From NCBI GenBank assembly GCA_021162935.1, contig JAGGXR010000063.1:10043-74042 (forward strand): a stretch of 64,000 nt of DNA. Reading direction: 5' to 3'. The number at the start of each line of letters is the position of its first letter. Position 1 is the first letter of the stretch. The stretch is from Deltaproteobacteria bacterium (lineage in GTDB: Bacteria > Myxococcota_A > Polyangia > HGW-17 > SLPX01). The notes under the pieces are model-generated. The model saw only the letters and a program-made list of their open reading frames with translations. It ran no database searches and was not told where the DNA came from. A program made the translations under genes and the position numbers. This document shows, piece by piece, positions 3,157-62,581 of this stretch.

Positions 3157-4533
3157 TCATGGCACGGAGACGAAGGCCATCTTCATGCGAAAGTTCGGAC
3201 TGTCTCCTTCAGACCAGGCGACCACGTAGACGTCACCAACGACGTGGGCGGCGGCTGGAGCATAGGGCGGAACCAGGGAGTCTGTCACCGCCCGTAGGGT
3301 GCCCAGGGTGAATTGGCTGCCATCGAAGGTAAACCCCTGGGCCGTGAATTGGTTGTGGAATCCGCTGATGTTTCGATACCAGAACACCGCACCACCGTTC
3401 GCAGCGGCGACCACCCTCGGTGCATAGTCCCGCCCACTGGTTGCGCCCAATGTGATGGATGCCGCGCTGCCGTTCATGTCCGTGCCGTCAGTGAGTATGA
3501 TGTCGTCGTTGGAGGCATAGGCCAAATAGAGAAGGTCGTTGGCCGGATCAACGGCGTAAAAGCTGGACGTGTCGCCGGCAACGGTGGCCACGACGCGAGG
3601 CGGTTGGGGCTGCGGGGTCGCATCTCCTGCTGGTATCATGGCCTGAACCACCTCGTTGTCCTGTCCGTTTCCTCCGCGGACGTAGCTCAAATAGATGTCG
3701 CCCTTGGAGTTCGCTGCGATGCTGGGATAGCTGTCGAAGCGACCGTCTTCGACGTAGCCGTCCACCGCGTTACCCACCAGACTACCGTTTTCGTCGAGGC
3801 TCTGTACGAAGGCCTGGAAGCCGGAAGCCACCGGAAGGCCCCTGACTGCAGCGATGGCGAATCCACCGGTGGGCAGAGCGGCCACCTGGGGACTCATGAC
3901 GTTGCCTGACACGGGCGTTGCGTCGTAGGTGGTTTCAAGGAAGCGGTCGCTCGTCATTTGTGGACTGCCGTCCGGGGCGAAGATCCGGTACGCCACGTCC
4001 ATGTTGTCGATTCCGGTTCCGTTGTCCGAAGACCAGACTACGTAGATGGCATCGTCGGCGATGGCGAGGTCCGGGTCCACGTCGTTTCCCTCGGTCGTGT
4101 TCACCTTGAATGGGGCCATGAGCCGGGATCCGTTGCAACCGAATCGGCTGAGGTACACGTCGAAGTCGCCGTTGTCGTTCGGGAGATTATAGACCAGCCA
4201 GACATCGTGACCATCGAAGGCCACCGCCGCGTGAATCTGGCTGTCCGGCCCCTGGGGATCCACCTCGAAGGGCGTGTCGAGCTGAAGCTGCTCTTGGCAG
4301 GTCTGCGGAACGCCTGCGTCGCCGCCGTCCATGTCCATGGTGGCATCAACGTCCATCCCGATGGCGTCGTGTTCGATTCCCGCATCCTTTCCAGGGCCAG
4401 CATCGGAGCTCTGTTGCGAAGGTGAGGAACAGCCAGCAAACAACAAGGGGACGGCGCACGACAAGAGCCAAAGTGACGGTCGAATCCAGGTGGACTCGAC
4501 GAAGAACGAAGAGCGAAGACCATTTCGATTCAT
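3157..4533 (-). CDS. Secreted lipoprotein, repeat-containing (possible beta-propeller), function unknown
   Basis: Start moved to the ATG at 4533 (MNRNGLRSS..., RBS aggaga). Signal peptide ends in lipobox LFAGC. Body is rich in D/G/Y repeat-like segments. Confidence 0.55.
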   Translation of the reverse strand: MNRNGLRSSFFVESTWIRPSLWLLSCAVPLLFAGCSSPSQQSSDAGPGKDAGIEHDAIGMDVDATMDMDGGDAGVPQTCQEQLQLDTPFEVDPQGPDSQIHAAVAFDGHDVWLVYNLPNDNGDFDVYLSRFGCNGSRLMAPFKVNTTEGNDVDPDLAIADDAIYVVWSSDNGTGIDNMDVAYRIFAPDGSPQMTSDRFLETTYDATPVSGNVMSPQVAALPTGGFAIAAVRGLPVASGFQAFVQSLDENGSLVGNAVDGYVEDGRFDSYPSIAANSKGDIYLSYVRGGNGQDNEVVQAMIPAGDATPQPQPPRVVATVAGDTSSFYAVDPANDLLYLAYASNDDIILTDGTDMNGSAASITLGATSGRDYAPRVVAAANGGAVFWYRNISGFHNQFTAQGFTFDGSQFTLGTLRAVTDSLVPPYAPAAAHVVGDVYVVAWSEGDSPNFRMKMAFVSVP

Positions 4534-5186
4534 GTGTCTGTCTCCTGGGAAATACTGCCGAAGGTTGAACATCTCAGTGATGTCCAGGAATACAGATTCT
4601 ATGATAACAGGTTGTGGTTGGTCAGGGAATTGGTTCGAACCACCACCGGCAGGGACAGACCCAAATCCAGCCGACGCCAAAGACCGACAGAGAGCGCGAA
4701 CTCAGTCGTGAGACGATGTGCGATGGGGCGGGCCTGTTTGCGTCCCTGTCACAAGCAAAGGCGTCCATCCGGCGCGAATGCGCCCGAATGTTTCGACGAA
4801 TTGTCATCGGTTGGTTGAGCCATCCTGACAAAGTGGCGCAATGGTTCGTTGGTGTCGTTCTGGAAGATTTTTTAAATGATAATGAAATCAAAGCGTTGCT
4901 AAAGATTTTTCCTTTTGGCACGGGTCATGCTGTTCAACTGGGTACGAGGGCCGAAGGACCCCAACGATGCATAGGAGGTGCTCCCATGAAGACAGCAGGA
5001 CCACTCGCCATGACCATGGAAAACAGCGTGATAGCCGACCTACCGGCGGAACTCATCGCCAACCTACGAGCCAGGATTGCCCGACGCCCAGGCCGATGGC
5101 GTCGTAGGATGCAGCCCAGGAGCAAGCGGAAGCGCGAGGTCGAAGGCCCCATGCCGGCTTCGGTCTGAGGATACGCAACAGCTTCC

Positions 5187-8722: not shown

Positions 8723-8782
8723 CGCCTGGCCTGGTTGGTCGGCCGACGCCCTGCACGTCCGTCAGAGGACCGGCATTTCTGG

Positions 8783-9115
8783 TCAGACTTTCAGATACGG
8801 AAGCACCTTCTGGAGCTTCATGGCGACCATGGGGTTGTCCACCTTGAGCTTGCCCGTGGCGAAGAGCTGCATTGCCACCGCGAAGTTACCCATCAGTTTG
8901 TCGAAGTCGTCTTGAGCAACGGTGATGGTGCAGTCTGGTTTGGCCCCGTCACCGGCGCCCACGGTGGGTGGATCGGCCTTGAGATCCATGGTCCAGACGC
9001 CGCCTTCTGGGCCCGAGATGTCGAACTTGAACACGGCGCCGACCTTCTTCATCTTGTCAGCGTGTTTGCTCAGCGCTTTGGGCGCCTTTTCTTCGAAGAT
9101 TTCTTTGGGGCTCAT
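8783..9115 (-). CDS. SCP2 sterol-carrier-like domain protein
   Basis: 110 aa from the ATG at 9115 (MSPKEIFEE...). The pattern FKFDISG...TITVAQDDFDKLMGNFAVAMQLFATGKLKVDNPMVAMKLQKV is characteristic of the SCP2 fold. Confidence 0.65.
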   Translation of the reverse strand: MSPKEIFEEKAPKALSKHADKMKKVGAVFKFDISGPEGGVWTMDLKADPPTVGAGDGAKPDCTITVAQDDFDKLMGNFAVAMQLFATGKLKVDNPMVAMKLQKVLPYLKV

Positions 9116-9676
9116 GCGGTCTCCTTGCAAAAATGGCACGGCTGGCTCGAATGGATCGGCGTCACACGGATCCGGCCGCAGTGTCTGGTGATGGTGGAGC
9201 CTGAGCGCCGACGTGGTCGTTGCGATGAGGCCCTCGCGCATCGAGCCGGTGCGCGAGGTGATTCTTACTCGTTTTCGGCTTGGTAAGGTAGAAAAATGAA
9301 GGCATCGGGATGGCCGCCACCGAAGCCTGAACGTGCAGCGTTGGCGCCAGGGAAAAAAGAGTCGGAAAAAGGTTGAAAATGGAGTCGGATTGGAGCAACT
9401 TCACAAAAAATCGACGAACGTGCTCAAGTCGCGTGGACGCGCTCAACAGGCAGTTCCTGGCATCGTCGGAAAAGACTGCATATGATGCTCTCGGAATTTG
9501 TTGTTTGCCGTTCATTTTTGCACTTGCCGTTTGGACGTCCCGTTCCAACCTCCGGTTCGAAACCCGAGATTGGAGTTCAGAATTGGAGCGAGGCGTTTGA
9601 GCGAAAGGCTTGGACCAGAGGTTCGCACTGCACATGCGGGCCTGGCGTTGGAACTTGGTGTTAGGATCTGGAGATC

Positions 9677-10198
9677 ATGACGAACGCAACGAATGCAATG
9701 ACGAAGACAGGGGCGGGAACGGGACAGGACGTGGACCGCTCCGAAGTGGAGCCGATCGTGGCCGCCTTCCAGGGCCGTCAGGGCGCCATCATTCCCTTAC
9801 TGCAGGAGATCCAGCGACGTTTCGGCTATGTACCGAAGACGGCCGTGGACGTCATTTCTGAAAAGATGGGCGTCTATCCGGTGGAGCTGTACGGCATCCT
9901 GACCTTCTATGCGCAGTTCTACCTCGAGCCGCGGGGTAAGCACACGATCAAGGTCTGCCAGGGGACGGCCTGCTACATCATGGGAGGCAAGCTTCTGCTG
10001 GACCAGCTCGAAGAGGATCTGCAGGTCCACGACGGGGAGACGACCGAAGACGGGCAGTTTACCCTTGAGACGGTGGCCTGCCTCGGTTGTTGCGGCATGG
10101 CCCCCGTCATGATGGTGGACGGCGATTTTTATGGATCGGTGAAGACAAACATTTTGGACTCCATTTTGGAGCATTATCGAGAGCAAGACAAACAATGA
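9677..10198 (+). CDS. NuoE/HndA-like [2Fe-2S] thioredoxin-like subunit of an NADH-dependent oxidoreductase
   Basis: QGTACYIMGG...CLGCCGMAPVMMVDGDFYG matches the four-Cys motif of the 24-kDa NuoE family. The stop overlaps the next start (ATGA). Confidence 0.8.
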   Translation: MTNATNAMTKTGAGTGQDVDRSEVEPIVAAFQGRQGAIIPLLQEIQRRFGYVPKTAVDVISEKMGVYPVELYGILTFYAQFYLEPRGKHTIKVCQGTACYIMGGKLLLDQLEEDLQVHDGETTEDGQFTLETVACLGCCGMAPVMMVDGDFYGSVKTNILDSILEHYREQDKQ

Positions 10199-11970
10199 AT
10201 GACCGACGTGAAACGGCTGCAGGCCGCATCATGGTCTGCACGGGTACGAGCGGCATCTCCAGCGGCGCCGAACAGGTGGCTGCCGGACTGGAGCGCGAAC
10301 TGGACAGCAGAAACCTGCGGGACGCCTGGCACGTGGTCCGTACGGGCGACCGAGGACTGTTCCAGGACGTGCTCGTGGACGTGATTCCGCCCGAGGGAGA
10401 ACGGGTCACCTACGTCAAGGTGAAGCCCAAGGATGTTGGGACCATCGTGGAGGAGCACCTGGTCGGCGGCCAGCCGGTCAAGCGTTTGGCGGCCGGCAAA
10501 CGGTACGACGACTTCTTCGCGACTCAGCAGCGGATCGTCCTGACGAACTGCGGCGAGATCGATCCCGAAGACATCGATGAGTACCTTGACCGTGGCGGCT
10601 ATGACGCGCTCAAGCAGGTGCTCGCCATGGACCCGGACGCGCTCATCGATGAGGTGGAGAAGGCGGGGCTACGCGGACGTGGTGGGGCCGGGTTCCCGAC
10701 CGGGACGAAGTGGCGATTCGCCCGCAAGGCGCAAGGGGTGAGCAAGTATATCATCTGCAACGCCGACGAGGGCGATCCAGGTGCCTTCATGGATCGGTCG
10801 GTTCTGGAGGGCGATCCCCACGCCGTGCTCGAAGGCATGGCCATTGGGGCTTACGCCATCGGGGCCAAACAGGGCTTCATTTATTGCCGGGCCGAGTATC
10901 CGCTTGCACTTAAGCGACTGGATATCGCCATCGCCCAGGCCAAGGAGCGAGGCCTGCTCGGTGAGGGCATCTTCGGCACGGACTTTTCGTTCGACGTGAG
11001 CGTGGTCCAGGGGGCCGGCGCGTTTGTTTGCGGCGAAGAGACCGCGTTGATGTCCTCCATCGAGGGGCATCGTGGCATTCCTCGACCCAGGCCGCCGTTT
11101 CCTGCGCAGAGTGGGTTGTGGGGCAATCCCACCAACATCAACAACGTGGAGACCTTTGCCAACGTTCGTCACATCGTGCTGCGCGGGGCCGACTGGTACG
11201 CGGCCATCGGCACTGAGTCCAGCAAGGGCACCAAGGTGTTTGCCTTGGCGGGCAAGGTGAAGAACACGGGGCTCGTCGAGGTCCCCATGGGGACCACCAT
11301 TCGACAGCTCGTCGAGGGGCCGGGCCGAGGCATGGCGGTCAAGCGGCTCAAACCCAAGGCCGTCCAGATCGGCGGTCCGTCGGGCGGCTGCCTGCCCGAG
11401 ACGATTTGGGACACGCCCATCGACTATGCGAGTTTGTCCGAAACGGGCGCCATCATGGGTTCGGGCGGCATCATCTTCATGGATGAGAAGAGCTGCATGG
11501 TGGACGTGGCCCGCTACTTTCTCGAATTCACCGTGAAGGAGTCCTGCGGCAAATGCGTGCCCTGTCGCGTGGGCCTCAAGCGTATGCTCGAGGCCATCAA
11601 CGAAATTGCTCGTGGGGAGGGGACCCTGGCCCATCTCGACTTCCTCGAGGACATGGCCCACACGATCCAGCAGACGGCGCTGTGTGGCCTGGGCCAGACC
11701 GCGCCCAATCCGGTCCTGACCACGCTGCGGTATTTCCGAGAGGAGTATGAGGCGCACATCGTAGACAAGAAATGCCCTGCTCACGTGTGCACCGATTTGA
11801 TCGAGTTCGTGGTGGACGAAGAAAAGTGTACGAAATGTGGTTTGTGCTTCAAGGCCTGTCCGGCTGGCGCCATCACCTGGCAAAAGGGCGAGTTCGCCAA
11901 GATCGACCAGGAGAAATGTACGAAGTGCAGATCCTGCATCAACGTTTGTGACTTTATGGCAATCCGATGA
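10195..11970 (+). CDS. NuoF/HndC-like flavoprotein (NAD(P)H-binding, FMN, 4Fe-4S) with an N-terminal thioredoxin-like domain and two C-terminal 4Fe-4S ferredoxin motifs
   Basis: Contains GRGGAGFPTGTKW (NuoF FMN/NADH signature) and a Cys cluster ESCGKCVPCRVG. The C-terminal domain has CTKCGLCFKACP and CTKCRSCINVCD. Start is the ATG at 10195. Confidence 0.85.
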   Translation: MNDRRETAAGRIMVCTGTSGISSGAEQVAAGLERELDSRNLRDAWHVVRTGDRGLFQDVLVDVIPPEGERVTYVKVKPKDVGTIVEEHLVGGQPVKRLAAGKRYDDFFATQQRIVLTNCGEIDPEDIDEYLDRGGYDALKQVLAMDPDALIDEVEKAGLRGRGGAGFPTGTKWRFARKAQGVSKYIICNADEGDPGAFMDRSVLEGDPHAVLEGMAIGAYAIGAKQGFIYCRAEYPLALKRLDIAIAQAKERGLLGEGIFGTDFSFDVSVVQGAGAFVCGEETALMSSIEGHRGIPRPRPPFPAQSGLWGNPTNINNVETFANVRHIVLRGADWYAAIGTESSKGTKVFALAGKVKNTGLVEVPMGTTIRQLVEGPGRGMAVKRLKPKAVQIGGPSGGCLPETIWDTPIDYASLSETGAIMGSGGIIFMDEKSCMVDVARYFLEFTVKESCGKCVPCRVGLKRMLEAINEIARGEGTLAHLDFLEDMAHTIQQTALCGLGQTAPNPVLTTLRYFREEYEAHIVDKKCPAHVCTDLIEFVVDEEKCTKCGLCFKACPAGAITWQKGEFAKIDQEKCTKCRSCINVCDFMAIR

Positions 11971-14147
11971 TCTCGATAACTATCAACGGCAAGCGTATCG
12001 AAACCGAGGAAAACAAAACCGTGCTGGAAGCGGCCCTTGCCGCCGGCCAGTACATTCCCAATCTCTGCCATCATCCGGAACTCAAGCCCGTTGGGGCCTG
12101 CCGGATGTGCATCGTGGAGATTGAGGGGCTGCGCGGCTTCCCCACGTCCTGCACCACTATGGTGCGAGACGGCATGGTGGTCCGTTCCGAAACGGATCAG
12201 CTCAAGAAGCTGCGTCGCAACCTCATGTGGCTCTATGAGAGCGAGTATCAGGGGACGCCTCCGTCTGGTTCCCAGCTTGAGATGGTCCAGAAGTGGACGG
12301 GTACCGCCGATTTCGACATGGTGCATCCCCAGCCGGCACAGCGTCCCATCCACGACCAGGATCCTCTTTACGTGCGGGACGCGAATAAATGCATCCTGTG
12401 CGGCAAGTGCACCAGGATCTGTCAGGAGGTTCGCGGGATTGGAGCCATCGGCATTTCGTATCGGGGCATCGCAAGTCAGGTGACCACTGCGTATGAGCTT
12501 CCCCTCGTGGACGCTGGCTGCAAGTTCTGTACGGCCTGCGTCGAGGTTTGTCCTGCTGGTGCTTTTTACGACAAGGCCCCCAGGCTCGCCGCCAAGGAGG
12601 TCGAGGTCGAGGCTGCCGAAACCGGGCAGCCGGCCGAGCGCATCGGTGTGGACTGGGACAAGTGGACCAAGGAAGAGGTGGTCATTTCCTGTCAAACCAC
12701 CTGTCCTGCCGGGATCGATGTTCCCCTGTATACGAGGCTCATCGCCGAAGGGAAGTTCCAGGATTCCTTGGCTGTGATTCGCGAGAAGGTCCCGTTTCCT
12801 CACTCGTTGGGGGCCGTGTGTCCGCACCCCTGTGAGGCAGCTTGCCGGCGCGGCGGGATCAACGAACCCATTGCGATTCGAGAGCTCAAGAAGTTCGTCG
12901 GGTCGCTCGACGATGGATCATGGATGTCTCGGCTGACCCGACGTCCCGATACGGGCAAGAAGGTGGCCGTTTTGGGTTCCGGCCCTGCCGGTCTGACGGC
13001 CGCCTGGTTCCTGCGGCTCGCCGGCCACGAGGTCACGGTTTTCGAGGTGATGCCCAAGGCCGGTGGCATGCTGCGGGCCGCCATTCCGCGGTATCGTCTG
13101 CCCTCCGACGTTTTGGACAAGGAAATCGGCTTCATCGAAAAAATTGGCGTCACCATCGAGACGAACAGCTCTAAGATGACGGCGGACAAGGCTTTCAATC
13201 TTGGGTATGACGCAGTTTTTGCGGCCTATGGTGCGCCCCTGGGCACCAAGATGGGTATTTCGGGCGAGGACGATCCTCGGGTCATGGACGGTCTATCCAT
13301 GCTCAAGGCGGTCGCCTTCGGTCAGGAGTTGAACCTGGGCAAGCGGGTGTGCGTGGTGGGCGGGGGGAATGTTGCCACCGATGCTGCACGGAGCGCATTA
13401 CGGTCCGGAGCAGAGCACGTCACCATGCTGTATCGACGGACGCGATCGGAAATGCCCGCCTTTGCCGAAGAGGTGGAGGCTTGCCTGGAAGAAGGCGTCG
13501 AACTGCGGTTGCTCGTCAACCCAGTTGGAATCACGGCGACCAGTGACCACCTCGACGTTCAGTGCATCAAGATGGAACTGGGCGAGCCCGACGAGAGCGG
13601 ACGGCGGCGCCCCGTGCCCATCGAGGGCAGCGAGTTCGTCATCGCAGCGGACAGTCTCATTATGGCCATCGGTCAGAAGACCGACGTGCCGGACGAATCG
13701 AAGGTACCCGTTTCGAAGCGAGGCCGCATCCTGGTGGACGACGAGACCCAGTCCACTGGGACACCGGGCGTGTACGCCGGTGGTGACGTGGTCACCGGGC
13801 CGGCAACGGTGATCGAGGCCATCGCTGCAGGGCGGCGGGCCGCGGCGAGCATCGATCGATATTTGGGCGGCGATGGCGCCATCGTGGATCAGTCGCTCTT
13901 CGTGCGCGAGCGCGAGAATCCCTACTTGGGCCGCCAGGAGGGTTTTGCCCACCAGCATCGACTCGAACCTGCTCATTTGCCGGCCGAGCAGCGGATCCAC
14001 TCCTTCGATGAGGTGGAGATCGTCTACGACGAGAAGACCGCCATGGCCGAAGCGGATCGATGCCTGCGTTGCCGCCTGCGTCTCGAAATGATCCCTCCTG
14101 CGGACAGCACGCCAGGTTCGGATTCGGCCGCCAACGGATCGGTTTGA
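11967..14147 (+). CDS. Fusion of a 2Fe-2S ferredoxin (NuoG N-terminal-like), 4Fe-4S domains and a GltD/NfnB-like FAD/NAD(P)H oxidoreductase
   Basis: N-terminus ISITINGKRIE...CHHPELKPVGACRMC. Cys clusters CILCGKCTRIC and CKFCTACVEVCP. Dinucleotide-binding motif VAVLGSGPAGLTAAWFL plus GltD-like regions. ATGA overlap with the upstream gene. Confidence 0.8.
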   Translation: MISITINGKRIETEENKTVLEAALAAGQYIPNLCHHPELKPVGACRMCIVEIEGLRGFPTSCTTMVRDGMVVRSETDQLKKLRRNLMWLYESEYQGTPPSGSQLEMVQKWTGTADFDMVHPQPAQRPIHDQDPLYVRDANKCILCGKCTRICQEVRGIGAIGISYRGIASQVTTAYELPLVDAGCKFCTACVEVCPAGAFYDKAPRLAAKEVEVEAAETGQPAERIGVDWDKWTKEEVVISCQTTCPAGIDVPLYTRLIAEGKFQDSLAVIREKVPFPHSLGAVCPHPCEAACRRGGINEPIAIRELKKFVGSLDDGSWMSRLTRRPDTGKKVAVLGSGPAGLTAAWFLRLAGHEVTVFEVMPKAGGMLRAAIPRYRLPSDVLDKEIGFIEKIGVTIETNSSKMTADKAFNLGYDAVFAAYGAPLGTKMGISGEDDPRVMDGLSMLKAVAFGQELNLGKRVCVVGGGNVATDAARSALRSGAEHVTMLYRRTRSEMPAFAEEVEACLEEGVELRLLVNPVGITATSDHLDVQCIKMELGEPDESGRRRPVPIEGSEFVIAADSLIMAIGQKTDVPDESKVPVSKRGRILVDDETQSTGTPGVYAGGDVVTGPATVIEAIAAGRRAAASIDRYLGGDGAIVDQSLFVRERENPYLGRQEGFAHQHRLEPAHLPAEQRIHSFDEVEIVYDEKTAMAEADRCLRCRLRLEMIPPADSTPGSDSAANGSV

Positions 14148-14540
14148 TCTCAGGCCGATCGCATCCGCGCCGGCGCATTGCCTCTCTCCGGCGCATTGCA
14201 TCTCTTCCGATCGTCCTTTCTCGATCGTCTTTTTCCTTTTGACACACATTGCCGTTTCCTGCGGCGTCGCCTCGTTGCAAGGCTGTCTTTGACTCCCTAT
14301 CGTTTTCGTATCCGATGCAATTCGGTGATCGCGCGGGCTTCGGGTCGTTTTCGTCGAGGTCGCCAGACTGTGACATTTGTGCCATAGGTGAAGCCTTTCT
14401 TCACATTCGACATTGTTGTGATGCGTCGTAGGTGTTTGAGATAACGCGAAAAAGTAGGTTGGCACCGACCTTGCTTTTGACTTTGGGTGACTGACACGAA
14501 CCACCAAGGCCGCCAGGCCGGAGCCCAACGAGGTGACATC

Positions 14541-21320: not shown

Positions 21321-22475
21321 CTATTTCCAACGGGCAATGTTCAGTTTACGTCCTGGCGTGACGGTGATCAGGCGGATCATGGATTTCTTGCCGTCGTAGC
21401 TCCTGAATTCCACCTTGTAGGGCTTGGCTCGGGCTGGGATGCCGATTTCGTTCCAGAGTCCAACGTCCCGGCCGTCCACCCGGATTCGGGCCCAGGGCGT
21501 CAGTTTGACGATGAGGACGCCGATACCGAAATTTCTCTTTGTCACCTGTCCTCGCTTGACGAAGACGCGCATCTTTCTGCCGACATGATACCTGCGGTAA
21601 TAGAAGATGACGGAGTATTCACCCTCGGGTACCAGAAGTTGTTTGATGGGGGTTTTTTTGCCCACGAGAGGCGCCCTGTTGATCCACACCTCGCAGGGGA
21701 ACGATGCCGTGAGGGTGAGCTTGCCCAGGACAGGTGAATTCTTGAGCCGTTTTCTGACCTCGCGTGCATTTTTCCCGCCGGGCATGACGCGCAGATACCG
21801 GACATAATAGGCTTGGGCCTGCTTCGTCTCGTGGAGTTTGGCGTACACCTGGCCGATCCACCGCAGGGCTCCGACCAGGGTCGGGTCCAGCATGAGGGCC
21901 GCCTGGAAGTACTTGATGGATGTGTGGTATCGGTGCCTTCGTGTCGCCTTCAATCCAAGGGTGAACGCTTTGACGCCGAAGGTTCGGGCGGATGCATGGG
22001 CCGCCAGATCCGAATCCACGAATGGAGCCGGCATGGACGCCATGGCCTTGATGGCGGTTTGGGCGGCGGCGATTTTTTTCGCATCCTTGGAGATCTTGAT
22101 GAAACGACGGAACGTTTCTGATGCCTCCACGAACTGTCCTGACATTCGGTAGACCTGTGCCAGCCGATACATGAGTTTGGGATTGTCGCCGGTCAGCGCC
22201 ACGGCGCCGCGGTACAGGACCGCCGCCTTGACGATGTTGCCTTGGTCGATGGCCGCCTCGGCCGCTTTGGTCAGCCAGGTGGCGTTTGGCATTTTTGGGT
22301 TTGAGGTTGCAGCACGGGCCGACGGCCGTGCCATTCCATGCCGACGGGCGTGCCCCTGTCTCGTTCTGGCTACAGCACGGTGGTGACGGGGTCGAGCTTG
22401 GGCCGGAGCAGCCATGAGAAGGGTGCAGACGAGGGAAAGGAGTCCAATGCGGGTTGGAGGAGCAATGCTGTTCAT
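21321..22475 (-). CDS. Secreted TPR plus PEGA-domain protein
   Basis: Start at the ATG at 22475 (MNSIAPPTRIGLLSLVCTLLMAAPAQA signal peptide). TPR-like helical repeats, then C-terminal PEGA-type beta domains (LTLTASFPCEVWINRAP..., LIVKLTPWARIRVDGRDVG...). Confidence 0.6.
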   Translation of the reverse strand: MNSIAPPTRIGLLSLVCTLLMAAPAQARPRHHRAVARTRQGHARRHGMARPSARAATSNPKMPNATWLTKAAEAAIDQGNIVKAAVLYRGAVALTGDNPKLMYRLAQVYRMSGQFVEASETFRRFIKISKDAKKIAAAQTAIKAMASMPAPFVDSDLAAHASARTFGVKAFTLGLKATRRHRYHTSIKYFQAALMLDPTLVGALRWIGQVYAKLHETKQAQAYYVRYLRVMPGGKNAREVRKRLKNSPVLGKLTLTASFPCEVWINRAPLVGKKTPIKQLLVPEGEYSVIFYYRRYHVGRKMRVFVKRGQVTKRNFGIGVLIVKLTPWARIRVDGRDVGLWNEIGIPARAKPYKVEFRSYDGKKSMIRLITVTPGRKLNIARWK

Positions 22476-22680
22476 GACGTTTGCCTCTCGGTCTGGCGTG
22501 CGCTGGGGCGACAACGAACGCTGATGGTGCTTCCAATGGTGATCGTTTCGACGTTTTATGCCTGTTTTCCCGGAGTCGGAAAATTGGCTTTCTTGTCGCT
22601 GTTGTGGAATTTTAGCGTAAATCCGTTGCTTGGCAAAGTTCCTTTTGCTATGGTTATGTGAGCTAGCAGACGAAAGGCCC

Positions 22681-23613
22681 ATGGTTCCCACGAGAATTTT
22701 GTTATTGGAGCGGAACAAGCTCCACCTCCGGAAGCTGACGCGGGTCCTGACCTGCACCGGTGTCGAAGTCATCCCAATGGAGGACAAGTCCGAACTGTCT
22801 TTGCATTTGGACGACCAACCGGCGGTTTTATGCGCAGACGCGGTGGATCTGTCTTCCGTGGTCGCGATTCTGGATGCACGTCAGGACATCCGTGCTGTGG
22901 TCTGGACAGCCAGCCAGGACCGCGCCGTCCTGGAGCGGGCGCTCGACCATCCTCGCCTTAGTCACATTTTGGGGCGAGCGTCACCCGATGTTCCTCCGAG
23001 GGAATGGGAGATTCTATGGACGGTGCGACGGATGATAACCGGCGAGCGTCCGTCGCTGGCCAGCCTGTTGCATTGGGGGTACACGGGCTTCAAAGAGACG
23101 GTTCGTACCCCACGCGATCGGGACCTGTGCGTCGAGGGAGTCGTTCGTTTTTGTGAGCGCCTCAATACGCCCGGTCGAGTTCGGGAGATGCTCGGGGAGT
23201 TCGCGCACGAATTGTTGATGAATGCCATGTACGATGCTCCAGTCGACGCGGCTGGACAACCCAAGTACGCCCATGACCGAAAGGCGCAGATCGAGTTGTC
23301 CGACGACGAAGCCGCGGTGATCCGCTGTGCGTCTGATGGGACGAAAATTCTCATTTCGGTGGTGGATCGGTTTGGGAGATTGCCACGGGACAAGGTGTTT
23401 TCCGGGATGCTCCGCGGATTGGATGGCGGAATCATGGATAAAAGTTACGGCGGAGCCGGTCTTGGGATGGTATATGTCTATAAGGCGAGTGTTGTTTCGA
23501 TATTTGACGTCGAACCAGGCAAGCGAACCGAGGTGACCGGGATTTACGAATTGGACCTGAATCAACGAATTTTTCGAACTTTGCCCAGGTCAGTGCATGT
23601 ATTCATCGGGTGA
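22681..23613 (+). CDS. Degenerate receiver-like domain fused to a GHKL ATPase (RsbW/SpoIIAB-like anti-sigma kinase-like), paralog 1
   Basis: The N-terminal about 110 aa have receiver-like topology, but the acidic pocket is replaced (ILLLERN). The C-terminal domain has an N-box ELLMNAMYDAP, a G1-like VVDRFGRL and G2 GGAGLGMVY. Paralogous to 28957-29955. ATG at 22681. Confidence 0.55.
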   Translation: MVPTRILLLERNKLHLRKLTRVLTCTGVEVIPMEDKSELSLHLDDQPAVLCADAVDLSSVVAILDARQDIRAVVWTASQDRAVLERALDHPRLSHILGRASPDVPPREWEILWTVRRMITGERPSLASLLHWGYTGFKETVRTPRDRDLCVEGVVRFCERLNTPGRVREMLGEFAHELLMNAMYDAPVDAAGQPKYAHDRKAQIELSDDEAAVIRCASDGTKILISVVDRFGRLPRDKVFSGMLRGLDGGIMDKSYGGAGLGMVYVYKASVVSIFDVEPGKRTEVTGIYELDLNQRIFRTLPRSVHVFIG

Positions 23614-23694: not shown

Positions 23695-25911
23695 ATGACG
23701 GGAGCAATGAACCAGGCGGGAGGGCAGCCGAAGCTTCAGATTGCGAAGATCGTCGAAGGCGACATCATGAGCCTTCGATTCATCGGGACCATTGATGAGG
23801 ATTTCGATGGGAAGCAGATGGCAGAGACGGTCAAAGGGACGCTGATTTTGGATCTTGGGCAGGTGCGGCGCATCAGCTCTTTCGGTATTCGTGAGTGGGT
23901 CGACTTCATCGGTGCAGCCAGCGAGAAGTGCAAGGCCATCTACTTCGTCGAGTGCTCTCCGAAGGTGATGGACCAGTTCAACATGGTGGCGAACTTTGCT
24001 GGCAAGGGACGCGTCCTTTCCTTTTATGCCCCGTACCGATGCGATTACTGCGACGACGATCGGGTGCGACTCGTTCAGGTGGAGGACAGCTGGGACGATA
24101 TTCAGAACATGCACCTGCCGGACTATCCCTGCGAGTCCTGTGGAAACCCTGAGTATTTCGATGAAGATCCCCAGAGCTTCTTCAATCACTTGATCAACCA
24201 GCCCAAGGTCGAGCCGGATCCGGCGGTGGCCAATTTTTTGGCCACGAAGCTCAACTATACGGTATCCGATGCCGCGAGGCGGCTTCGCATCGAGAAGCAC
24301 ATTGGTAGGGCAACCTATATCAAGTTGGCCGGGGATCTGGATGCCGACTTCCCGAAGAACAAGATTGTCGAGGGGTTGGAAGGCGATGTGGTGTTCGACG
24401 TGGGAAGCCTCGGCCGCATCGACGACGCAGGAGCTACGGTTTGGGCCAACGCCATGCAGGAGATCGCCCAGACTGCGTCGCGTGTCATGGTCAGACACGC
24501 GACACCTGGTTTCATCGAACGACTCACCACGCCCGAGGCGCTCGCCGGCAAGGTGGAGGTGCTCGACCTCTATATGCCGTTTGCCTGTTCCCATTGCGGC
24601 ACGACGGCAGCGCAACTCGTGGACGTGGCCGAGCATTTCGACGTGCTTAAATTTGCGACACCTCCGGAGATGACCTGCTCGGATTGCGGCGCCAAGACCG
24701 ATTGCGTTGCATCCGAGGAGTTCATGGCGCAGGTTGCCGGGCTGCCGAAGCCCGATCTGTCGTCGGACCTGAAGAAGTTCTTCGACGAGGCGGAAGAAAT
24801 CGTCAACCGTCCTCCGGTAGCTGCTGCACAGGGGCCGCAGGCGGGCCTGCCTTCGTTGGGTGGGGGGGCGGCGCCCATGGTGGCGCCGGCACGGACCATG
24901 GGGCTCGCCGCTCTGATTGCCGTGGTGGTTTCATTGGTCGTGGTGCTCGGTGTGGGGCTCATGGTCTGGAAGTACGTCCAGATGAAGAAGACGAAGCTCT
25001 ACGACGAGGCTGGGACCGTGGTGAAACAGAAGGCGGCCAAGCTGCCTGGCTGGATGAAGAAGGCCAAGACGAAGAGTGTGTGGCGTGATGGGGGCGTCCT
25101 GACGGTGGTGGGCTATTCTCACAGCGCCAGGGACAGCGAGCAAGCTCGTCAGTTGGCGGTGGAAGACGCCCTGGAGAGCATCGTGCAAGAGATTGCCGAC
25201 GGCGTGCAGAACGAGGACTGGAAGCAGGCGGTTATGGCCCAATACAAGGACGTTCGATCCGACAGCATCGAGCGCCTCAAGACCGCCATGACCGCAAAGG
25301 ATGCGGATGCCGTTCGAAAAGCCAGGAAGAAGGTGTGGGAAGCGAGACGCCGGGTGGCCAAGGCGTTTAGGGCCACGGCCTACGAGGTGCCCAAGGAGGG
25401 AGACGACTTTTGGCAGAAGCTCAAGACGTCGGACGGCATTCGTTGGCGGTATTGGGTCATCATCCAGGTGGACGAAAAGAAGATCGAGGGGTATCGCCAG
25501 CACTATACGAAGTTGTACAAGACGCAGGGCGTGATCGTCGCAAACTACTTTCCCGGCTTGGCTTGGGCCTATCCGACGGCGACCGCGGGAGCCGTCGTCT
25601 TGAAGGTGGATGCCGGTAGCCCCTGGCGGGTCCCCGGTTTGGAGCGTGGCAATCTGATCGTGGAATGTCGGCGCCAGCAGATTGGCAGCGGCAAGGTTTT
25701 CGTGGAGTCCATCGATGAGACGACGCGGCTTTTCAAGGATTCGGGCGGTCGGGTCGAGTGCAAGACGCTGTACGGGTCGGTGGTGCGGCCGGTCGGGTAC
25801 GAGATTGCCCGGAAAACCCAGCCAAGGGTCCACAACGGCGGGCGAACGTATCCGCACCATCGGCCGGCCACCACGTTCACCGGAAATGTGTGGGACGATC
25901 CCACGAAATGA
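23695..25911 (+). CDS. Membrane-anchored protein with two tandem STAS-like domains, each followed by a Cys4 zinc-ribbon, one TM helix, and a C-terminal PDZ-like domain
   Basis: STAS module 1: LILDLGQVRRISSFGIREWVDF...ECSPKVMDQFNMVANF then FYAPYRCDYCD...CESCG. Module 2: VVFDVGSLGRIDDAG...LYMPFACSHCG...CSDCG. TM segment GLAALIAVVVSLVVVLGVGLMVW. C-terminal region GLERGNLIVECRRQQIGSGKVFVESI. RBS gaaagaggag. Confidence 0.6.
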   Translation: MTGAMNQAGGQPKLQIAKIVEGDIMSLRFIGTIDEDFDGKQMAETVKGTLILDLGQVRRISSFGIREWVDFIGAASEKCKAIYFVECSPKVMDQFNMVANFAGKGRVLSFYAPYRCDYCDDDRVRLVQVEDSWDDIQNMHLPDYPCESCGNPEYFDEDPQSFFNHLINQPKVEPDPAVANFLATKLNYTVSDAARRLRIEKHIGRATYIKLAGDLDADFPKNKIVEGLEGDVVFDVGSLGRIDDAGATVWANAMQEIAQTASRVMVRHATPGFIERLTTPEALAGKVEVLDLYMPFACSHCGTTAAQLVDVAEHFDVLKFATPPEMTCSDCGAKTDCVASEEFMAQVAGLPKPDLSSDLKKFFDEAEEIVNRPPVAAAQGPQAGLPSLGGGAAPMVAPARTMGLAALIAVVVSLVVVLGVGLMVWKYVQMKKTKLYDEAGTVVKQKAAKLPGWMKKAKTKSVWRDGGVLTVVGYSHSARDSEQARQLAVEDALESIVQEIADGVQNEDWKQAVMAQYKDVRSDSIERLKTAMTAKDADAVRKARKKVWEARRRVAKAFRATAYEVPKEGDDFWQKLKTSDGIRWRYWVIIQVDEKKIEGYRQHYTKLYKTQGVIVANYFPGLAWAYPTATAGAVVLKVDAGSPWRVPGLERGNLIVECRRQQIGSGKVFVESIDETTRLFKDSGGRVECKTLYGSVVRPVGYEIARKTQPRVHNGGRTYPHHRPATTFTGNVWDDPTK

Positions 25912-25953: not shown

Positions 25954-27174
25954 ATGAGGAACTGGATTGCATTCGGGCTGCTTGCCTTGGCGGTCATGGC
26001 TGGCACCCCGGCCCGGGGACAGACGTTCTCCAGCCCCCGACAACGTGCCAAGTACGTACGCCTGTATAACAAGGGGAACGCCTTTTTGTATCAGGGCCAA
26101 TATGTTCCCGCCATTGCTCATTTCAAGCAGGCCATTGCCATCGCCCCCCAGTTGCCCGGTGCCTGGCGGCAGCTCGGGTTGGCCTACGAGGGCATGGAGG
26201 AGTATCGGTCGGCCATCAGGGCCTATCAGCAGTATTTGAAGTATGCTGGCACGAGAGGAAAGTACGCCGTCAAGGTGATGCTGCGCATCAACGTGTGCCG
26301 GTCCAAGGTTGGGCTGCCGCCGAAGAAATTCGAAACCTTCCTGACAGGACGGCCGGGCATGGTCAACGTGACCTGCAACGTCGAGGGTGCTCTGGTTCGG
26401 GTCGACAACGTTCAGCGAGCTTCGACGCCGACCGGTCCCTTGCCAGTCTCCCCGGGGTTGCACACGATCACGGTCTCCAAGGTGGGGCGTTTGCCCTGGA
26501 GTTCCTCGATTGTGATCCAATCGGGGCAGAACGCCTCGGTGAACGCGGTCCTCAAGCCCGATCCCTCGTATCATCTTATCGTAGTTCGTCCGAGAATTGC
26601 CGTTCCCAAGACGACCCGGGCCTCGGTGATCATGAGGGTCAACGTCAAGCAATTCCAGGTGTTCGCCAACGGCAAGCGGGTGGCTTCTGGTGCTACCGGA
26701 GCCTATGAGTTGGGATCGGGGATCTGGCTGGTCGAGGTGCGGGCGCCTGGGATGCTGACCTGGAGCCGTAAGGTGTCTCTGGGCAAGGGAGAACATCGGG
26801 TGTTCGACGTTCGGTTGTACAATCGAAAGCGGCAGATTGCATTCAGTCGATATGCCTGGGCGACCTTGGCGACGGCGGCCGCACTGACCATCGTGGGCGC
26901 TGGATTCGGGTTTGCCGAGGACCATGCTTATGAACGGGTTCGAGATCGGGATGCATCGTCGAGGCAGGAACTGGATGACTTCGCCCGTCGCGGTAAGGCC
27001 TATCGAGCGGTTTCTTTGACCCTGTATGGTGCCGCCGGTGCGGCACTCATCACGTCGGCCGTGTTTTTTTTGCTGCATCACAGGAGTGAGTCTGCGACAG
27101 GCAAAGTCCCTCTGTCGCTATCTGTGGGGCGCAGGGGTGTTTCCCTGTCCTTTACCAGGGAGGTGGATTTCTGA
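25954..27174 (+). CDS. Secreted TPR plus PEGA-domain protein with a C-terminal TM anchor
   Basis: Signal peptide LLALAVMAGTPARGQ. TPR-like AIAHFKQAIAIAPQLPGAWRQLGLAYEGMEEYRSAIRAYQQYL. Two PEGA-like modules (MVNVTCNVEGALVRVDN..., IWLVEVRAPGM...). TM segment WATLATAAALTIVGAGFGFA. Confidence 0.65.
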   Translation: MRNWIAFGLLALAVMAGTPARGQTFSSPRQRAKYVRLYNKGNAFLYQGQYVPAIAHFKQAIAIAPQLPGAWRQLGLAYEGMEEYRSAIRAYQQYLKYAGTRGKYAVKVMLRINVCRSKVGLPPKKFETFLTGRPGMVNVTCNVEGALVRVDNVQRASTPTGPLPVSPGLHTITVSKVGRLPWSSSIVIQSGQNASVNAVLKPDPSYHLIVVRPRIAVPKTTRASVIMRVNVKQFQVFANGKRVASGATGAYELGSGIWLVEVRAPGMLTWSRKVSLGKGEHRVFDVRLYNRKRQIAFSRYAWATLATAAALTIVGAGFGFAEDHAYERVRDRDASSRQELDDFARRGKAYRAVSLTLYGAAGAALITSAVFFLLHHRSESATGKVPLSLSVGRRGVSLSFTREVDF

Positions 27175-30406: not shown

Positions 30407-33400
30407 ATGGAGAAAAGAAGGATCGGCCAAGGTAAGGCCATACAGGAGCGCAGCATCGAGGCGGACATGATGGAAGTGTCTGCTTTGCTGGCGCGGGAAG
30501 CACGGGAGTTCCCTGATCGAGACCGTCGTGAGGCGTTGTATCTGAGATTGGCAGTGATCTGTTGGATCCTGTTCGAGGACCTGGATGCCGCTCTTCGCTA
30601 TCTGGATGAGATCGAGTCGCTGTCGGCCGATGGATACCTGTTCAAGAGAAGTTTGTTGTTGGCGGCAGGAGACAGGGTCGGGTTGCGTCGTTTGCTCGAT
30701 TTATCCGTGTCCGAAGGCGTTTGTGCGAGTATTTCTTCGTGTACGCTGGCGGCGGCCGAGACCTTCGCCTTCGTCGAGCAGGATTGGCAAAAGACAGCAG
30801 CTCGTTCGAAGCATATGTTTGGGGGACCGTTCGATGAATCCCTGAACGAGTTGGTCACCTTGGCGCTTGAAATGGCCAAGGACCGCAAGGCCCTCATGCG
30901 GCATTTATCGGAACATGGAGGCATGGCGGGGCATTTCAGGTTGGCGACGATCGTTGGCGACGTGGAGGAACACCGCGAGGAATCCATGCGTATCCTGCGG
31001 GAAATGCTCGATACGCTGCAGGGGGCGGATGAGCATGACTCCTCGACGGAGGCGATGACCAGGTTGGTGTTGGAACGGTTGTGGGAGTTGAACTTCGTCC
31101 GTCCGCCGCTGCGGATTCCTGCCGCTGTGGGCGTCGATTGCCTTTTGGGAAAGAAGTTGGAGCTATTGGGGGACGTGCCCGAGGAGATGTCCGAGGCAAA
31201 CGTGGTGCGGTATCTCCTTGCCCAATGGCACCGGGAACAGGGGGCCCTGGATCGAACGGCCGAGATGCTGGAGTCATTGGCGCAATCCGAGAACCGTTGG
31301 GGGCGGTGTCTCGCGTTAGAGTCGCGCCGTGCGGTCGCCGTGGAGCGAGCCCAGTGGAAGGAACTTTCTGGCTTCTATTCTGAATTGGCAGATGAACTGA
31401 CCGGTTCGTCCTGGAGCGGTGTCTATCGTTTTCGAGCTGCGGAATTGGCGGAGTGCTCCTATTCGACTGACGAAGAGGTGGAAACACTCGCTCGTCAGGC
31501 GCTTGCGGACCTGAAGGATGGAGCACAGGCTCTTGCGATGTTGGAGCGAATCCTGGCCAGGCGCGGCGACGTTGCTGGGCTGGCGGATCTGTTCGAAGCA
31601 GCAGCGGAACGCACGGGGAAGCATCATTACGCCCGTTGGGCGGCACATGTCGTCGAGTTTCAGGTCTCCGACCCGGAGCGGGCCAAGGCGCTTCGATTCT
31701 TTGGGACTACGGATCCTTCGTTTGAGGACCTGTTGGACCGGGTTCGGGTCGAATGGCGGCTCCATCACGCGGACCAGGTGCGGACGTTGTGCGAGACGCT
31801 TGCTGGCTGCGCCATACAGCAAGGGGATGGGGACAGCGGGAAATGGTGGTCGTCGATATGGTCGCTGGCCGCAGGGCTGTCTGCCCTGCGGGTCGAGGAC
31901 GGCATGGAGGCCGAGCGCTTGTTGAAGCAGGCCGTGGATGCGGACTCTTCGGAGCCGGTGGCTTCCATGGCCTTGGCGGTTTTCTATCGCCGTTGGGGGC
32001 AATGGGATGCGGCGATCGAGCGGCTCGAAATGGTCGGAGATCTTCTTAGGTCCACGGCCGCCAAGGTGCATGCCCTGCGAACTCTGGCTCGGGTTGCCGG
32101 GATGCACACCGACCGCACCGACTTGGCCGAAAAGAGTCTGGAAAAGGCGCTGGAGTTGACCCCGGACGATCCGGCTGTCCTCCATGAAATGGCGTTGCTG
32201 GCCGACAAGAGAGAGGATTTCGAACGGGGGCTGCAGCTTCGTCACAAGGCTGCGACGTTGCTCGAGGGCAGCTTCCGTGCCGCCGTCTTGTGGGCTGAAA
32301 TCGGTCGTAGTTATGCGGAACATGGCGACGATGAGGCCGCCGAAAAGGCGTTTGTTCGGTCATTGGATGTGGACGAGAGCCAGATGGATGTTCTGACCGA
32401 TCTCAGTGACATCTACCGCAGACAGCGTCGATGGCCGGAATTGCTCGAATCGGTTCAGCTGCTGCTGGAGCGGGACGAGGAACACGCGGCGGATCTCCAT
32501 GTCGAGGCAGCGCGGCTCGTTCTGAGACAGCACATGGATACGAGCGAGGCTCTTGGCCATTATCGGACCGCGCTCGAGATCAATCCTGAGCATGACAAAG
32601 CCCTCAATGGGCTTGAACGCCTCTGCCGACGAGAAGGGCGTTGGGCGGACCTGATCGACGCGCTTCGCAAGGTGCCCGCAAATGCTGATCGGGTCACCAT
32701 GTTGCTCAATGCATTCGAACGTCTGTCACAGTGGGACGAACTCATCGAGGTGGCGGAGAAGCGCATCGAGGAGACTGGAGATGTGAGTGAGGTGGCTGAG
32801 CTTGCGAGGCGCATCGCCAGCGTCTATGAGTCACAGCTCGGTCAGCCCGATGATGCATTGACCTGGTACAAGAAGGCGTTCGTCGCCAACCCCGGGGACC
32901 GTGAGGTTGCTGCGGTTTACGAAAAGTACTTGAGTCGGGAGGAGCGCTGGGAGGATCTGGCCGAGGCGCTCAAGAGAGAGGTCCAGGTCCTTTCCGACGA
33001 CAAGAAACGTGCCCTGAAGGTGCGCAGGAGATTGGCCGACGTGTTGGCGGACCGTCTTGGGCAGGTTGGGGAGGCGGTTTCCGTTCTGGAACAGGTCGAC
33101 AAGGATGGAGAAGCCAATGAAGATATTTGGCTTCGATTGGCCGACCTGTATGGCCGACTGGGGCGTGTCAAGGATGAACTGGATGTCCTGGAACGGATTG
33201 CTGGGTCCAGTCGAGACCGCGACATGCAGGTGTCCCTGCTCGTCCGGGCGGGAAAGGTTCGAGAGGAGAAAGGGGACGACGAGGGCGCTCTGCAGACGTA
33301 TATCCGTGCCTTCCAGCTCGACCCCGCTCACCGGGATGCTTTTACGGCTGTCGAGCGTCTCTGTTACAAGCTCAAGGTATGGAAGGAGACGTTGGACCTC

Positions 33401-58443: not shown

Positions 58444-58596
58444 GATGCCCCCTACACTCCATGAGAAAATTGATGGATTCGTAAAAAGTCGGATTTTTTC
58501 AAGTAACTGAAACAATTGATTAAGTTCTCATTTTTGCTTGACATGATATCTTGCTTGTAGCACATTTATTTCATGATTTCAATTCATTACAGGACA

Positions 58597-61383: not shown

Positions 61384-61451
61384 CGATTTTGGTTGAGCGA
61401 TTGGTCTGGTGGCCCATTGCATGTTTCTTTCTCCACCTCGTTTGTGGGTTT

Positions 61452-62546: not shown

Positions 62547-62581
62547 GTGGTTTCTTGTCATTGCTCGATATCCCTCCCATT

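Follow-up and report, generated by a model that had tools for sequence, protein, structure and literature searches.

Which enzyme is made by an operon that joins a NuoE-like and a NuoF-like protein to a fusion of NuoG-type and GltD-like modules, and would such an enzyme bifurcate electrons? The question is raised by positions 9677-14147 of a 64,000-nucleotide stretch of DNA from a Deltaproteobacteria bacterium (GenBank assembly GCA_021162935.1, contig JAGGXR010000063.1); the whole stretch is referred to as the window. An initial annotation had proposed a Stn/Nfn-like electron-bifurcating transhydrogenase as a candidate. In our opinion the product of the operon is probably a soluble heterotrimer that belongs to the Bfu (HydABC-like) family and is predicted to catalyse a ferredoxin-dependent transhydrogenation of the Nfn type between NADPH and NAD+. 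It would be a minimal form of the enzymes characterised so far, with nine iron-sulfur (Fe-S) clusters and about 162 kDa.

The three forward-strand genes (C, B and A in this order, see Table 1) encode 173, 591 and 726 amino acids. Both junctions are ATGA overlaps (AACAATGAATG at 10195-10198 between genes C and B, CCGATGATC at 11967-11970 between genes B and A), and the overlaps stated in the initial annotation are borne out, as is its description of the subunits (NuoE-like, NuoF-like with two C-terminal 4Fe-4S motifs, NuoG/GltD fusion), which agrees with the Pfam domains. The ATG at 10195 taken as the start of gene B agrees with the homologues; a mechanical list of open reading frames (ORFs) has TTG 10087 instead. 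The GC content at third codon positions (GC3) is 0.74-0.76 in the three genes, as in other real genes of this window of 59% GC. A GGAG ribosome-binding site lies 6 nt 5' of gene C, and the intergenic gap before this gene is 390 bp.

A bifurcating-type core in subunits B and C

Subunit B contains the domain set of BfuB proteins (IPR011538, IPR019554, IPR019575, IPR017896). Pfam finds Complex1_51K (PF01512, E = 6e-48), NADH_4Fe-4S (PF10589, 4e-33) and two C-terminal Fer4 motifs (PF00037, 2e-14); the SLBB domain, at E = 2.3e-5 and 24.6 bits, stays slightly below its 27-bit cut-off. When all PDB sequences are searched, five bifurcating-type B chains align over the full length with 726-785 bits, namely those of NiFe-HydABCSL (7t2r), C. 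saccharolyticus NfnABC (9bov), T. sibiricus NfnABC (9n5u), T. kivui HydABC (7q4v) and S. ovata StnABC (8oh5). The non-bifurcating chains score 427 (FdsB), 409 (Nqo1) and 354 (E. coli NuoF). The ligands conserved for B1 (C451, C454, C457, C497), for the Zn hinge B2 and for B3 and B4 (eight Cys in residues 545-585) are all present.

Losey et al. 2020 (PMC7311640) described sequence features by which bifurcating NuoF homologues can be told from non-bifurcating ones, among them A/E..M in the NADH site, an F close to the FMN, and GGPSG. Subunit B has the bifurcating state at every one of them, reading GDPGAFMDR, GAGAFVCGEE and GGPSG. In the aligned E. coli NuoF the corresponding residues are T..K, Y and GGAGT, and each criterion fails. 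Non-bifurcating homologues are known to lack the bifurcating-type residues or the B3/B4-type domains (PMC7311640, PMC11406978).

Subunit C is NuoE-like (IPR002023), as expected of a BfuC, with C94, C99, C135 and C139 as predicted ligands of the [2Fe-2S] cluster C1. Their spacing of 5/36/4 is that of C74/C79/C115/C119 in T. sibiricus NfnC (PMC12018979), and the top PDB sequence matches are 7t2r_C, 9bov_C, 8a6t_C and 8oh5_A. Overall, NfnABC/StnABC and HydABC are the best solved relatives of all three proteins, which fits the kind of enzyme first proposed for this locus.

Subunit A and a predicted electron path

Subunit A has the ferredoxin-type 2Fe-2S and 4Fe-4S domains of a BfuA (Fer2_4, E = 1e-20; Fer4_Nqo3/Fer4_7 with 2x[4Fe-4S]) together with a GltD/NfnL-like FAD-NADPH domain with two [4Fe-4S] clusters (Fer4_20, 3e-18; Pyr_redox_2, 1e-36). 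The entries that lead by sequence, 9bov, 9n5u and 8oh5, also lead by fold when its AlphaFold model is compared with Foldseek.

The modules are arranged in a different order. In HMMER and BLAST alignments with StnC/NfnA, residues 2-99 correspond to 4-108 (2Fe-2S domain), residues 115-219 to 588-694 (ferredoxin-like domain, which there lies past GltD) and residues 242-702 to 104-578 (GltD unit). Hence subunit A reads 2Fe-2S, 2x[4Fe-4S], GltD; the GltD unit is not inserted between the 2Fe-2S and ferredoxin-like domains as in Stn, and the chain stops 23 residues past a CxxC. The place of the insertion in StnC, which is also the site of the His-ligated [4Fe-4S] cluster in NuoG/HydA, is taken by the linker of residues 98-129. 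A Fdh/NuoG-like C-terminal domain with A4 and A5 is absent, and no molybdopterin-type domain is matched by Pfam in subunit A.

The Fer4_20 module is permuted, its CxxC segment being C-terminal to the flavin domain: the tail alone matches positions 1-28 of the profile (E = 1.3e-4), while residues 241-312 (with C242, C246, C285, C289, C293 and K308) match positions 31-105. C699 and C702 of the tail would complete cluster A6. The YRR motif of the second (NADPH) Rossmann fold is invariant in 22 homologues, and presumably it binds the NADPH 2'-phosphate, as in GltD/NfnB. Around the FAD-proximal cluster, C246, C285, C289 and K308 align without gaps and are invariant in the same 22 homologues. K308 corresponds to K170 of the C. 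saccharolyticus and S. ovata enzymes, which is a ligand of this cluster together with three Cys, and whose mutation in these enzymes abolishes or halves activity (PMC10482914, PMC11829005). Equally gap-free and invariant is R377, the counterpart of S. ovata R239; variants of the latter have been tested in S. ovata StnC (PMC10482914).

According to the C. saccharolyticus and T. sibiricus structures the productive path runs FAD-A7-A6-A3-A2-A1-B1, and A4/A5, located in the Fdh-like domain, are a dead end (PMC11829005, PMC12018979). Subunit A keeps exactly A1, A2, A3, A6 and A7; since it has no Fdh-like domain, it has no dead-end A4/A5 clusters either.

Table 1. Positions of the operon genes, their parts and a downstream hairpin in the window
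Feature	Position	Strand	Basis or remark
Gene C (BfuC/StnA/NuoE-like, 173 aa)	9677..10198	+	2Fe-2S_thioredx PF01257, E 6e-50
Gene B (BfuB/StnB/HydB-type NuoF-like, 591 aa)	10195..11970	+	FMN/NAD(H) site, B1 [4Fe-4S], B2 Zn hinge, B3 and B4
N-terminal region of gene B (B5 site, ligands lost)	10195..10509	+	compared in an alignment of 22 locus-encoded homologues and five BfuB chains of solved structure
Zn-hinge ligands H521, C527, C532 (with C434), then two CxxCxxCxxxC (B3/B4, residues 545-585)	11755..11964	+	E. coli NuoF lacks these positions
Gene A (short NfnA/StnC-like, 726 aa, predicted NADPH-input subunit)	11967..14147	+	top PDB sequence matches 9bov_A (8e-160), 9n5u_A, 8oh5_C
[2Fe-2S] domain A1, residues 1-97, C34/C45/C48/C62	11967..12257	+	Fer2_4; aligned to residues 4-99 of C. 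saccharolyticus NfnA and S. ovata StnC; Cys invariant in 22 homologues
Cys-free linker, residues 98-129	12258..12353	+	no PF10588 match; low pLDDT
NuoG-type ferredoxin-like domain, 2x[4Fe-4S] A2/A3, C142/145/148/152/185/188/191/195	12354..12623	+	Fer4_Nqo3; aligned to residues 600-690 of StnC/NfnA, past their GltD domain
GltD/NfnL-like unit	12687..13871	+	Fer4_20 positions 31-105, FAD Rossmann fold GSGPAG, NADPH Rossmann fold GGGNVA ... YRR 489-491, R377
C-terminal tail, residues 676-703, C699-x2-C702	13992..14075	+	displaced first Fer4_20 segment; aligned to the stretch past the GltD domain of StnC/NfnA; invariant in 22 homologues; pLDDT 74-87
Terminator-like hairpin with T-run	14208..14227	+	60 nt past gene A stop; weak evidence

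What the analysis demonstrates are the genes and their domains, the conserved ligands, the homology, membership in a clade and the autonomy of the operon; the substrates, the electron path, bifurcation and the physiological direction are inferred. The reaction would be 2 NADPH + NAD+ + Fd(ox) <-> 2 NADP+ + NADH + Fd(red), where Fd is ferredoxin, and would be reversible. NADPH would reduce the FAD of the GltD-like domain of subunit A, from which single electrons may pass through A7 (C246, C285, C289, K308) and A6 (C242, C293, C699, C702) to A3, A2 and the [2Fe-2S] cluster A1, and on to the [4Fe-4S] cluster B1 and the FMN of subunit B. In the 'flavobicluster' formed by B1, FMN and C1 the high-potential electrons would then be given to NAD+ on FMN, while those of low potential would travel via the mobile [2Fe-2S] cluster C1 of subunit C to B3, B4 and finally ferredoxin.

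A scattered clade without B5 ligands

The operon is not peculiar to the window. With a word-indexed search, A-like proteins of about 690-720 amino acids were recovered in at least 120 separate clusters (90% identity); they cover 93-100% of the query with 51-63% identity. Their source labels include Planctomycetota, Phycisphaerae, Sedimentisphaerales, Kiritimatiellia, Aerophobetes, Dehalococcoidia and Thermoplasmatota, to which a GTDB scan adds Omnitrophota, Elusimicrobiota and Dissulfurispiraceae. The clade spans at least eight phyla, archaea included. In a library of 50%-identity representatives it shrinks to about one representative (P0123, 700 aa, 792 bits), and long Stn-type proteins make up most of the remaining top 150. 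Given that the clade is tight (52-66% identity from Planctomycetota to Thermoplasmatota archaea) and yet phylogenetically scattered, we suggest that it has spread horizontally. One member has an archaeal setting that includes genes for Cdc6 and Alba.

At every clade locus examined the order is C (about 160 aa), B (about 585 aa) and A (about 700 aa), with usually overlapping junctions. When the flanks of ten loci were compared all against all, only the three operon genes proved to be conserved and the flanks were otherwise unrelated; the same operon is also present at L085, at the archaeal L086 and at L087. Among the scanned ORFs of the 64-kb window (three ORFs at 60133-63922 lie outside the scan, and some ORFs gave no Pfam match) there is no catalytic subunit of a hydrogenase or a formate dehydrogenase (FDH), no nuo gene, no gltB and no separate ferredoxin gene. 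Neither these ORFs nor the operon include an NfnS/NfnA small subunit (PyrK-like, FAD + [2Fe-2S]). The absence of an adjacent hydrogenase or FDH catalytic subunit, already remarked upon in the initial annotation, further extends to 12 related loci, none of which has such a gene beside the operon.

These observations bear on the idea that the complex is an NAD(P)H/ferredoxin module that docks on a distant catalytic partner, such as a hydrogenase, an FDH or an 11-subunit complex I, in which case NADPH would not be the 'third substrate'. The Bfu family is indeed modular, the BfuA of other types hands electrons to extra subunits (PMC9304861), and A-like proteins do occur in other gene contexts. However, no partner gene is conserved beside the operon at ten loci of different phyla, subunit A stops after the GltD unit without the partner-contacting NuoG/Fdh-like C-terminal domains, and its complete FAD/NADPH site already supplies a third substrate. 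We therefore regard docking as highly improbable.

A different reaction at the GltD-like flavin could also be imagined, with the complex acting as an NADPH-dependent sulfur or polysulfide reductase (Nso-like) or as an electron donor related to glutamate synthase. The homologous NsoABC of T. litoralis was originally reported to be an NADPH-dependent sulfur oxidoreductase, to go by the passages of PMC10482914 and PMC7483475 that cite this work; the best NCBIfam matches of the window proteins include models named 'glutamate synthase small subunit'; and glutamate dehydrogenase genes stand beside the operon at three of ten loci. On the other hand, Kremp et al. suggest that Nso itself may be an Nfn-type NADH-dependent Fd(red):NADP+ oxidoreductase (PMC7483475), and gltB is missing from the related loci as well. 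The matches to NCBIfam, including those to the NuoE and NuoF models, are all below the curated cut-offs (559 vs 916 bits), which places the three proteins outside every family named by NCBI. We give this explanation hardly any credence. Both a hidden partner and another flavin reaction are made less likely by the autonomy of the operon together with its complete NADPH site.

Returning to the Nfn-type transhydrogenase that we prefer, the phylogeny of the NuoF-like subunit and its bifurcation signatures are two of the checks by which the initial annotation proposed to judge its candidate. Both outcomes that it named as refuting, a hydrogenase or FDH gene nearby and a NuoF-like subunit placed with respiratory complex I, were looked for, and the results favour the candidate. 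The signatures, as described above, are of the bifurcating type at all diagnostic positions, with the B1-B4 ligands in place. In a Kimura-corrected neighbour-joining tree, built from 566 columns of 29 sequences with 200 bootstraps and with E. coli NuoF as the outgroup, subunit B is placed among Bfu-type subunits. A long branch separates it from E. coli NuoF, to which it is 40% identical. The window clade has 100% bootstrap support and the canonical Nfn/Stn clade (S. ovata, C. saccharolyticus, T. sibiricus) 98.5%.

A further property of the clade concerns the B5 site in the N-terminal region of subunit B. The window protein reads C15-x-GTSG ... TGDRGLF there: a single ligand position is still Cys, two others are Asp and Phe, and neither a [2Fe-2S] cluster nor Zn has its ligands. 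Both known B5 motifs, the 4-Cys one ([2Fe-2S]) and the 3-Cys one (Zn or [2Fe-2S]), are replaced in all 13 clade members examined (the window, L001-L009, L085, L086 and L087). At L085 the region has no Cys at all, with Ser at the position of the last one. Because the motif is common to all examined relatives, it is a trait of the family and not a sequencing accident. The domain itself is retained, with GDRGLF invariant across the clade. For comparison, the B5 site of S. ovata StnB contains three Cys and is reported to hold a cluster, and the NfnB proteins of C. saccharolyticus and T. sibiricus have Zn (PMC11829005, PMC12018979); Schut et al. 2022 (PMC9304861) stressed the conservation of BfuBC cofactors as absolute.

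Did the complex then lose bifurcation along with B5, so that it works as a plain NADPH:NAD+ transhydrogenase or diaphorase, or as an uncoupled NAD(P)H:ferredoxin oxidoreductase? The consistent loss of ligands in 13 of 13 members speaks for this, as does the view that Bfu sub-types without the B3/B4/B5 domains are non-bifurcating (PMC11406978). Experiments on relatives point the same way: in the summaries that PMC12018979 gives of this work, deletion of the B5-bearing domain strongly cut bifurcation by T. kivui HydABC, and the B5 cluster of the S. ovata enzyme was reported to be essential. Yet the B5 domain itself persists with its invariant motif, and C1, the Zn hinge, B3/B4 and every bifurcating-type residue are likewise retained, features that non-bifurcating homologues lack. 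Further, two active bifurcating Nfn enzymes hold a redox-inert Zn at B5 (PMC11829005, PMC12018979). In our opinion a non-bifurcating complex, although the main rival, is therefore unlikely.

Several points nevertheless weigh against our interpretation. Given that B5 matters in the T. kivui and S. ovata relatives, full loss of its ligands could mean that bifurcation is altered or lost. The window subunit B falls outside the canonical Nfn/Stn clade, in a separate clade, and the sister relation of the two has only 63% bootstrap support in a simple neighbour-joining tree. The changed order of domains in subunit A means that contact between A6 and A3 is assumed; the AlphaFold2 model is good in the GltD unit but unreliable in the Fe-S domains, with pLDDT below 50 for residues 118-211. 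Finally, the A-type architecture is also found without B and C, and hence subunit A alone may have another partner or role.

On balance, we lean, if by a modest degree, towards a naturally minimised, horizontally spread Nfn-Bfu that still bifurcates without a B5 metal or a Fdh-like scaffold. In published structures the branch of A4, A5 and the Fdh-like domain lies off the path, and two Nfn enzymes that are active have Zn in place of the cluster at B5; both losses are thus compatible with activity.

Nfn-type transhydrogenases govern the balance of NADPH, NADH and ferredoxin in anaerobes, and Kremp et al. (PMC7483475) noted organisms that have neither Nfn nor Stn and asked about a third complex. 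The StnC homologues in their paper are 894-1241 amino acids long only and come from Firmicutes, Proteobacteria, Synergistetes and Euryarchaeota. Nfn-Bfu is clade 53 in Schut et al. 2022 (PMC9304861), with members from Euryarchaeota, Firmicutes, Synergistetes and Bacteroidetes; sequences of our clade may be in their data set. The three structural papers cover the inserted architecture only (PMC10482914, PMC11829005, PMC12018979). Neither the tandem form of about 700 amino acids nor a BfuB whose B5 domain lacks ligands was found described in the literature searched, whose coverage was limited, so that this is absence of evidence. The compact form occurs in many uncultured lineages and is annotated merely as 'FAD-dependent oxidoreductase', and hence metabolic reconstructions likely overlook it. 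A specialist will hardly be surprised by the kind of enzyme; what is filled is an annotation gap in many uncultured anaerobes. Further, the compact form retains exactly the cofactors that the cryo-EM studies of 2023-2025 put on the productive path, and has dropped A4, A5, the Fdh-like domain and the metal at B5, all of which have been argued to be dispensable. It is therefore a small and well-suited object on which to test the 'flavobicluster' model of bifurcation in Bfu enzymes. If it is indeed minimised and still bifurcating, it would be the smallest working Bfu machine, with FAD, FMN, nine Fe-S clusters and one Zn, and this natural experiment would settle the dispute on B5 as part of the bifurcation site.

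Neighbours, related architectures and known systems

The immediate neighbours of the operon are genes for a putative lipoprotein and a putative outer-membrane protein. Upstream are genes for an amidase, a thiolase, a phosphoglucomutase, the putative lipoprotein and a 183-residue ORF without Pfam match; downstream are those for the putative outer-membrane protein, TPR proteins, a saccharopine dehydrogenase, a radical-SAM protein, FadL, CstA and a histidine kinase. The surroundings are unusually rich in TPR proteins, of 2068 residues at 30407-36613 (+) and 932 residues at 40186-42984 (+), with others at 21321-22787 (-) and 25954-27174 (+), one of them with a PEGA domain. Large ORFs without Pfam match are found at 23695-25911 (+), 45854-49078 (-), 56548-58515 (-) and 3157-4680 (-), with 738, 1074, 655 and 507 amino acids; GC3 is gene-like (0.71-0.77) in three of them and just 0.58 in the ORF of 655 residues. 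A strong hairpin at 9232-9258 (12-bp stem, nine G-C pairs) lies in the 3' end of ORF 8735-9286, about 420 nt 5' of the operon, and has no proper T-run. In the scan for promoters and terminators the counts of sites in the region were not above the shuffled expectation, which leaves its sites as weak evidence only, and an Rfam scan of the whole window gave no match.

At other clade loci, the glutamate dehydrogenase genes mentioned above are those of L002 (11483-14491), L007 (1219-2601) and L008 (4039-5421). A glutamine synthetase gene adjoins the operon in the archaeal L086 (2066-3403), and one for pyruvate:ferredoxin oxidoreductase lies 3 kb downstream in L001 (13007-16552). Such neighbours give an anecdotal link to NADPH-consuming nitrogen assimilation and to ferredoxin supply. 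In L087 (2536-4266), from a Dehalococcoidia metagenome-assembled genome (MAG), the B gene is broken in the assembly by a frameshift or stop, being either an assembly error or a pseudogene.

Tandem-architecture proteins of 730-970 amino acids and 34-48% identity stand without adjacent NuoE/NuoF-like genes in Betaproteobacteria (L018, L021, L023, L026, L031, L037, L065), archaea (L034, L040, L053) and Dehalococcoidia/Chloroflexia (L010, L011, L014, L015, L017), some with extra terminal regions (DUF7508 in L040).

A different operon is that of Agathobacter ruminis JK623 (L051, 6487-11218), with similar ones in Lachnospiraceae and Bacteroidales (L027, L029, L030, L041, L043, L047, L052). It encodes an FAD_binding_2 flavoprotein of 482 residues, an A-like protein of 705 residues and a truncated NuoF-like protein of 369 residues with NADH_4Fe-4S and 2xFer4 but no FMN domain, and it has no NuoE. 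The A-like protein has the tandem order and, unlike the window subunit A, the motif PF10588 of the NuoG His-ligated cluster. This operon appears to be uncharacterised.

In Dehalococcoidia, Desulfobacterales and Eubacteriales (L035, L038, L044, L057, L059) a NuoE-like gene is followed by one for a NuoF-like protein of 1011-1053 amino acids, which seems to have a GltD unit fused at its C-terminus. Next comes a NuoG-like ORF of 911-931 amino acids in L035/L038, 605 in L057 and 239 in L059; none was identified in L044. Such a fusion of B with GltD would be an alternative attachment of the NADPH domain to the Bfu core.

Two other loci (L080, 7995-10025; L081, 7992-10019) have C-B-A operons whose A, of about 675 amino acids, follows the Stn order (2Fe-2S, GltD, 2x4Fe-4S) without a Fdh-like domain, which was thus lost, or never gained, in that lineage too; their B subunits are within the canonical Nfn/Stn clade. 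The C-B-A operon of a Chloroflexia MAG (L012, 5600-10112) combines a tandem-order A of 706 residues (46% identity) with a B of 638 residues that keeps the 3-Cys B5 motif and groups with the B::GltD fusions, outside the window clade. A short tandem A and the loss of B5 are hence separable.

How does the window complex compare with known systems? With the N-module of complex I (NuoEFG/Nqo1-3) and with FdsABG all three subunits share ancestry, and the positions of FMN, N3/B1, N1a/C1 and N1b/A1 are common. E. coli NuoF, however, has non-bifurcating residues at all diagnostic positions and lacks the C-terminal ferredoxin domain and the Zn hinge, and the C-terminal domains of NuoG are missing from subunit A. 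Membership in a complex I N-module was rejected, as there is no full-length NuoG and no nuo context among the scanned ORFs, and the NuoF residues are of the bifurcating type. Glutamate synthase was rejected too, on account of the sub-threshold NCBIfam matches and the lack of gltB in the same ORFs.

With NfnSL/NfnAB (4ylf, 5jca) the GltD-like FAD/NADPH domain with its two [4Fe-4S] clusters is homologous (E = 3e-83; TM 0.78, target-normalised), and the overall reaction is presumably the same. The differences are the missing NfnS/PyrK-like subunit, for which membership in NfnSL was rejected, the permuted Fer4_20 and the Lys ligand at the FAD-proximal cluster, as in StnC. The GltD flavin of StnC was reported to be non-bifurcating, bifurcation being assigned to the BfuBC core.

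HydABC (7q4v, 7p5h, 8a6t) and NiFe-HydABCSL (7t2r) have the same bifurcating core ligands, and 7t2r_B is the single best PDB match of subunit B (785 bits, 61% identity). These hydrogenases carry a 4-Cys [2Fe-2S] site at B5, whereas the window complex has no H-cluster or NiFe subunit and its subunit A has a flavin/NADPH domain instead.

The closest likeness in plan is to NfnABC/StnABC of S. ovata (8oh5), C. saccharolyticus (9bov) and T. sibiricus (9n5u). Gene order (NuoE-like, NuoF-like, GltD/NuoG fusion), the modules of the large subunit, the Lys ligand (K170/K308), the equivalent of R239, the B1-FMN-C1 core, the Zn hinge and the B3/B4 domain are all in common, and sequence identity is 57-59% for subunit B and 44-47% for the GltD unit. 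At 726 residues, the large subunit of the window is shorter than its counterparts of 963-1178; StnC reads 2Fe-2S, GltD, 2x[4Fe-4S], Fdh-like, while subunit A has 2x[4Fe-4S] before GltD and neither the Fdh-like domain nor A4/A5; and B5 has [2Fe-2S] ligands in S. ovata, Zn ligands in C. saccharolyticus and T. sibiricus, and those of neither in the window. The permuted Fer4_20, exactly as in StnC/NfnA, is a shared derived feature and supports the Nfn/Stn-type interpretation. The window locus thus differs from canonical Stn and belongs to a widespread, uncharacterised variant of an enzyme whose kind is already known.

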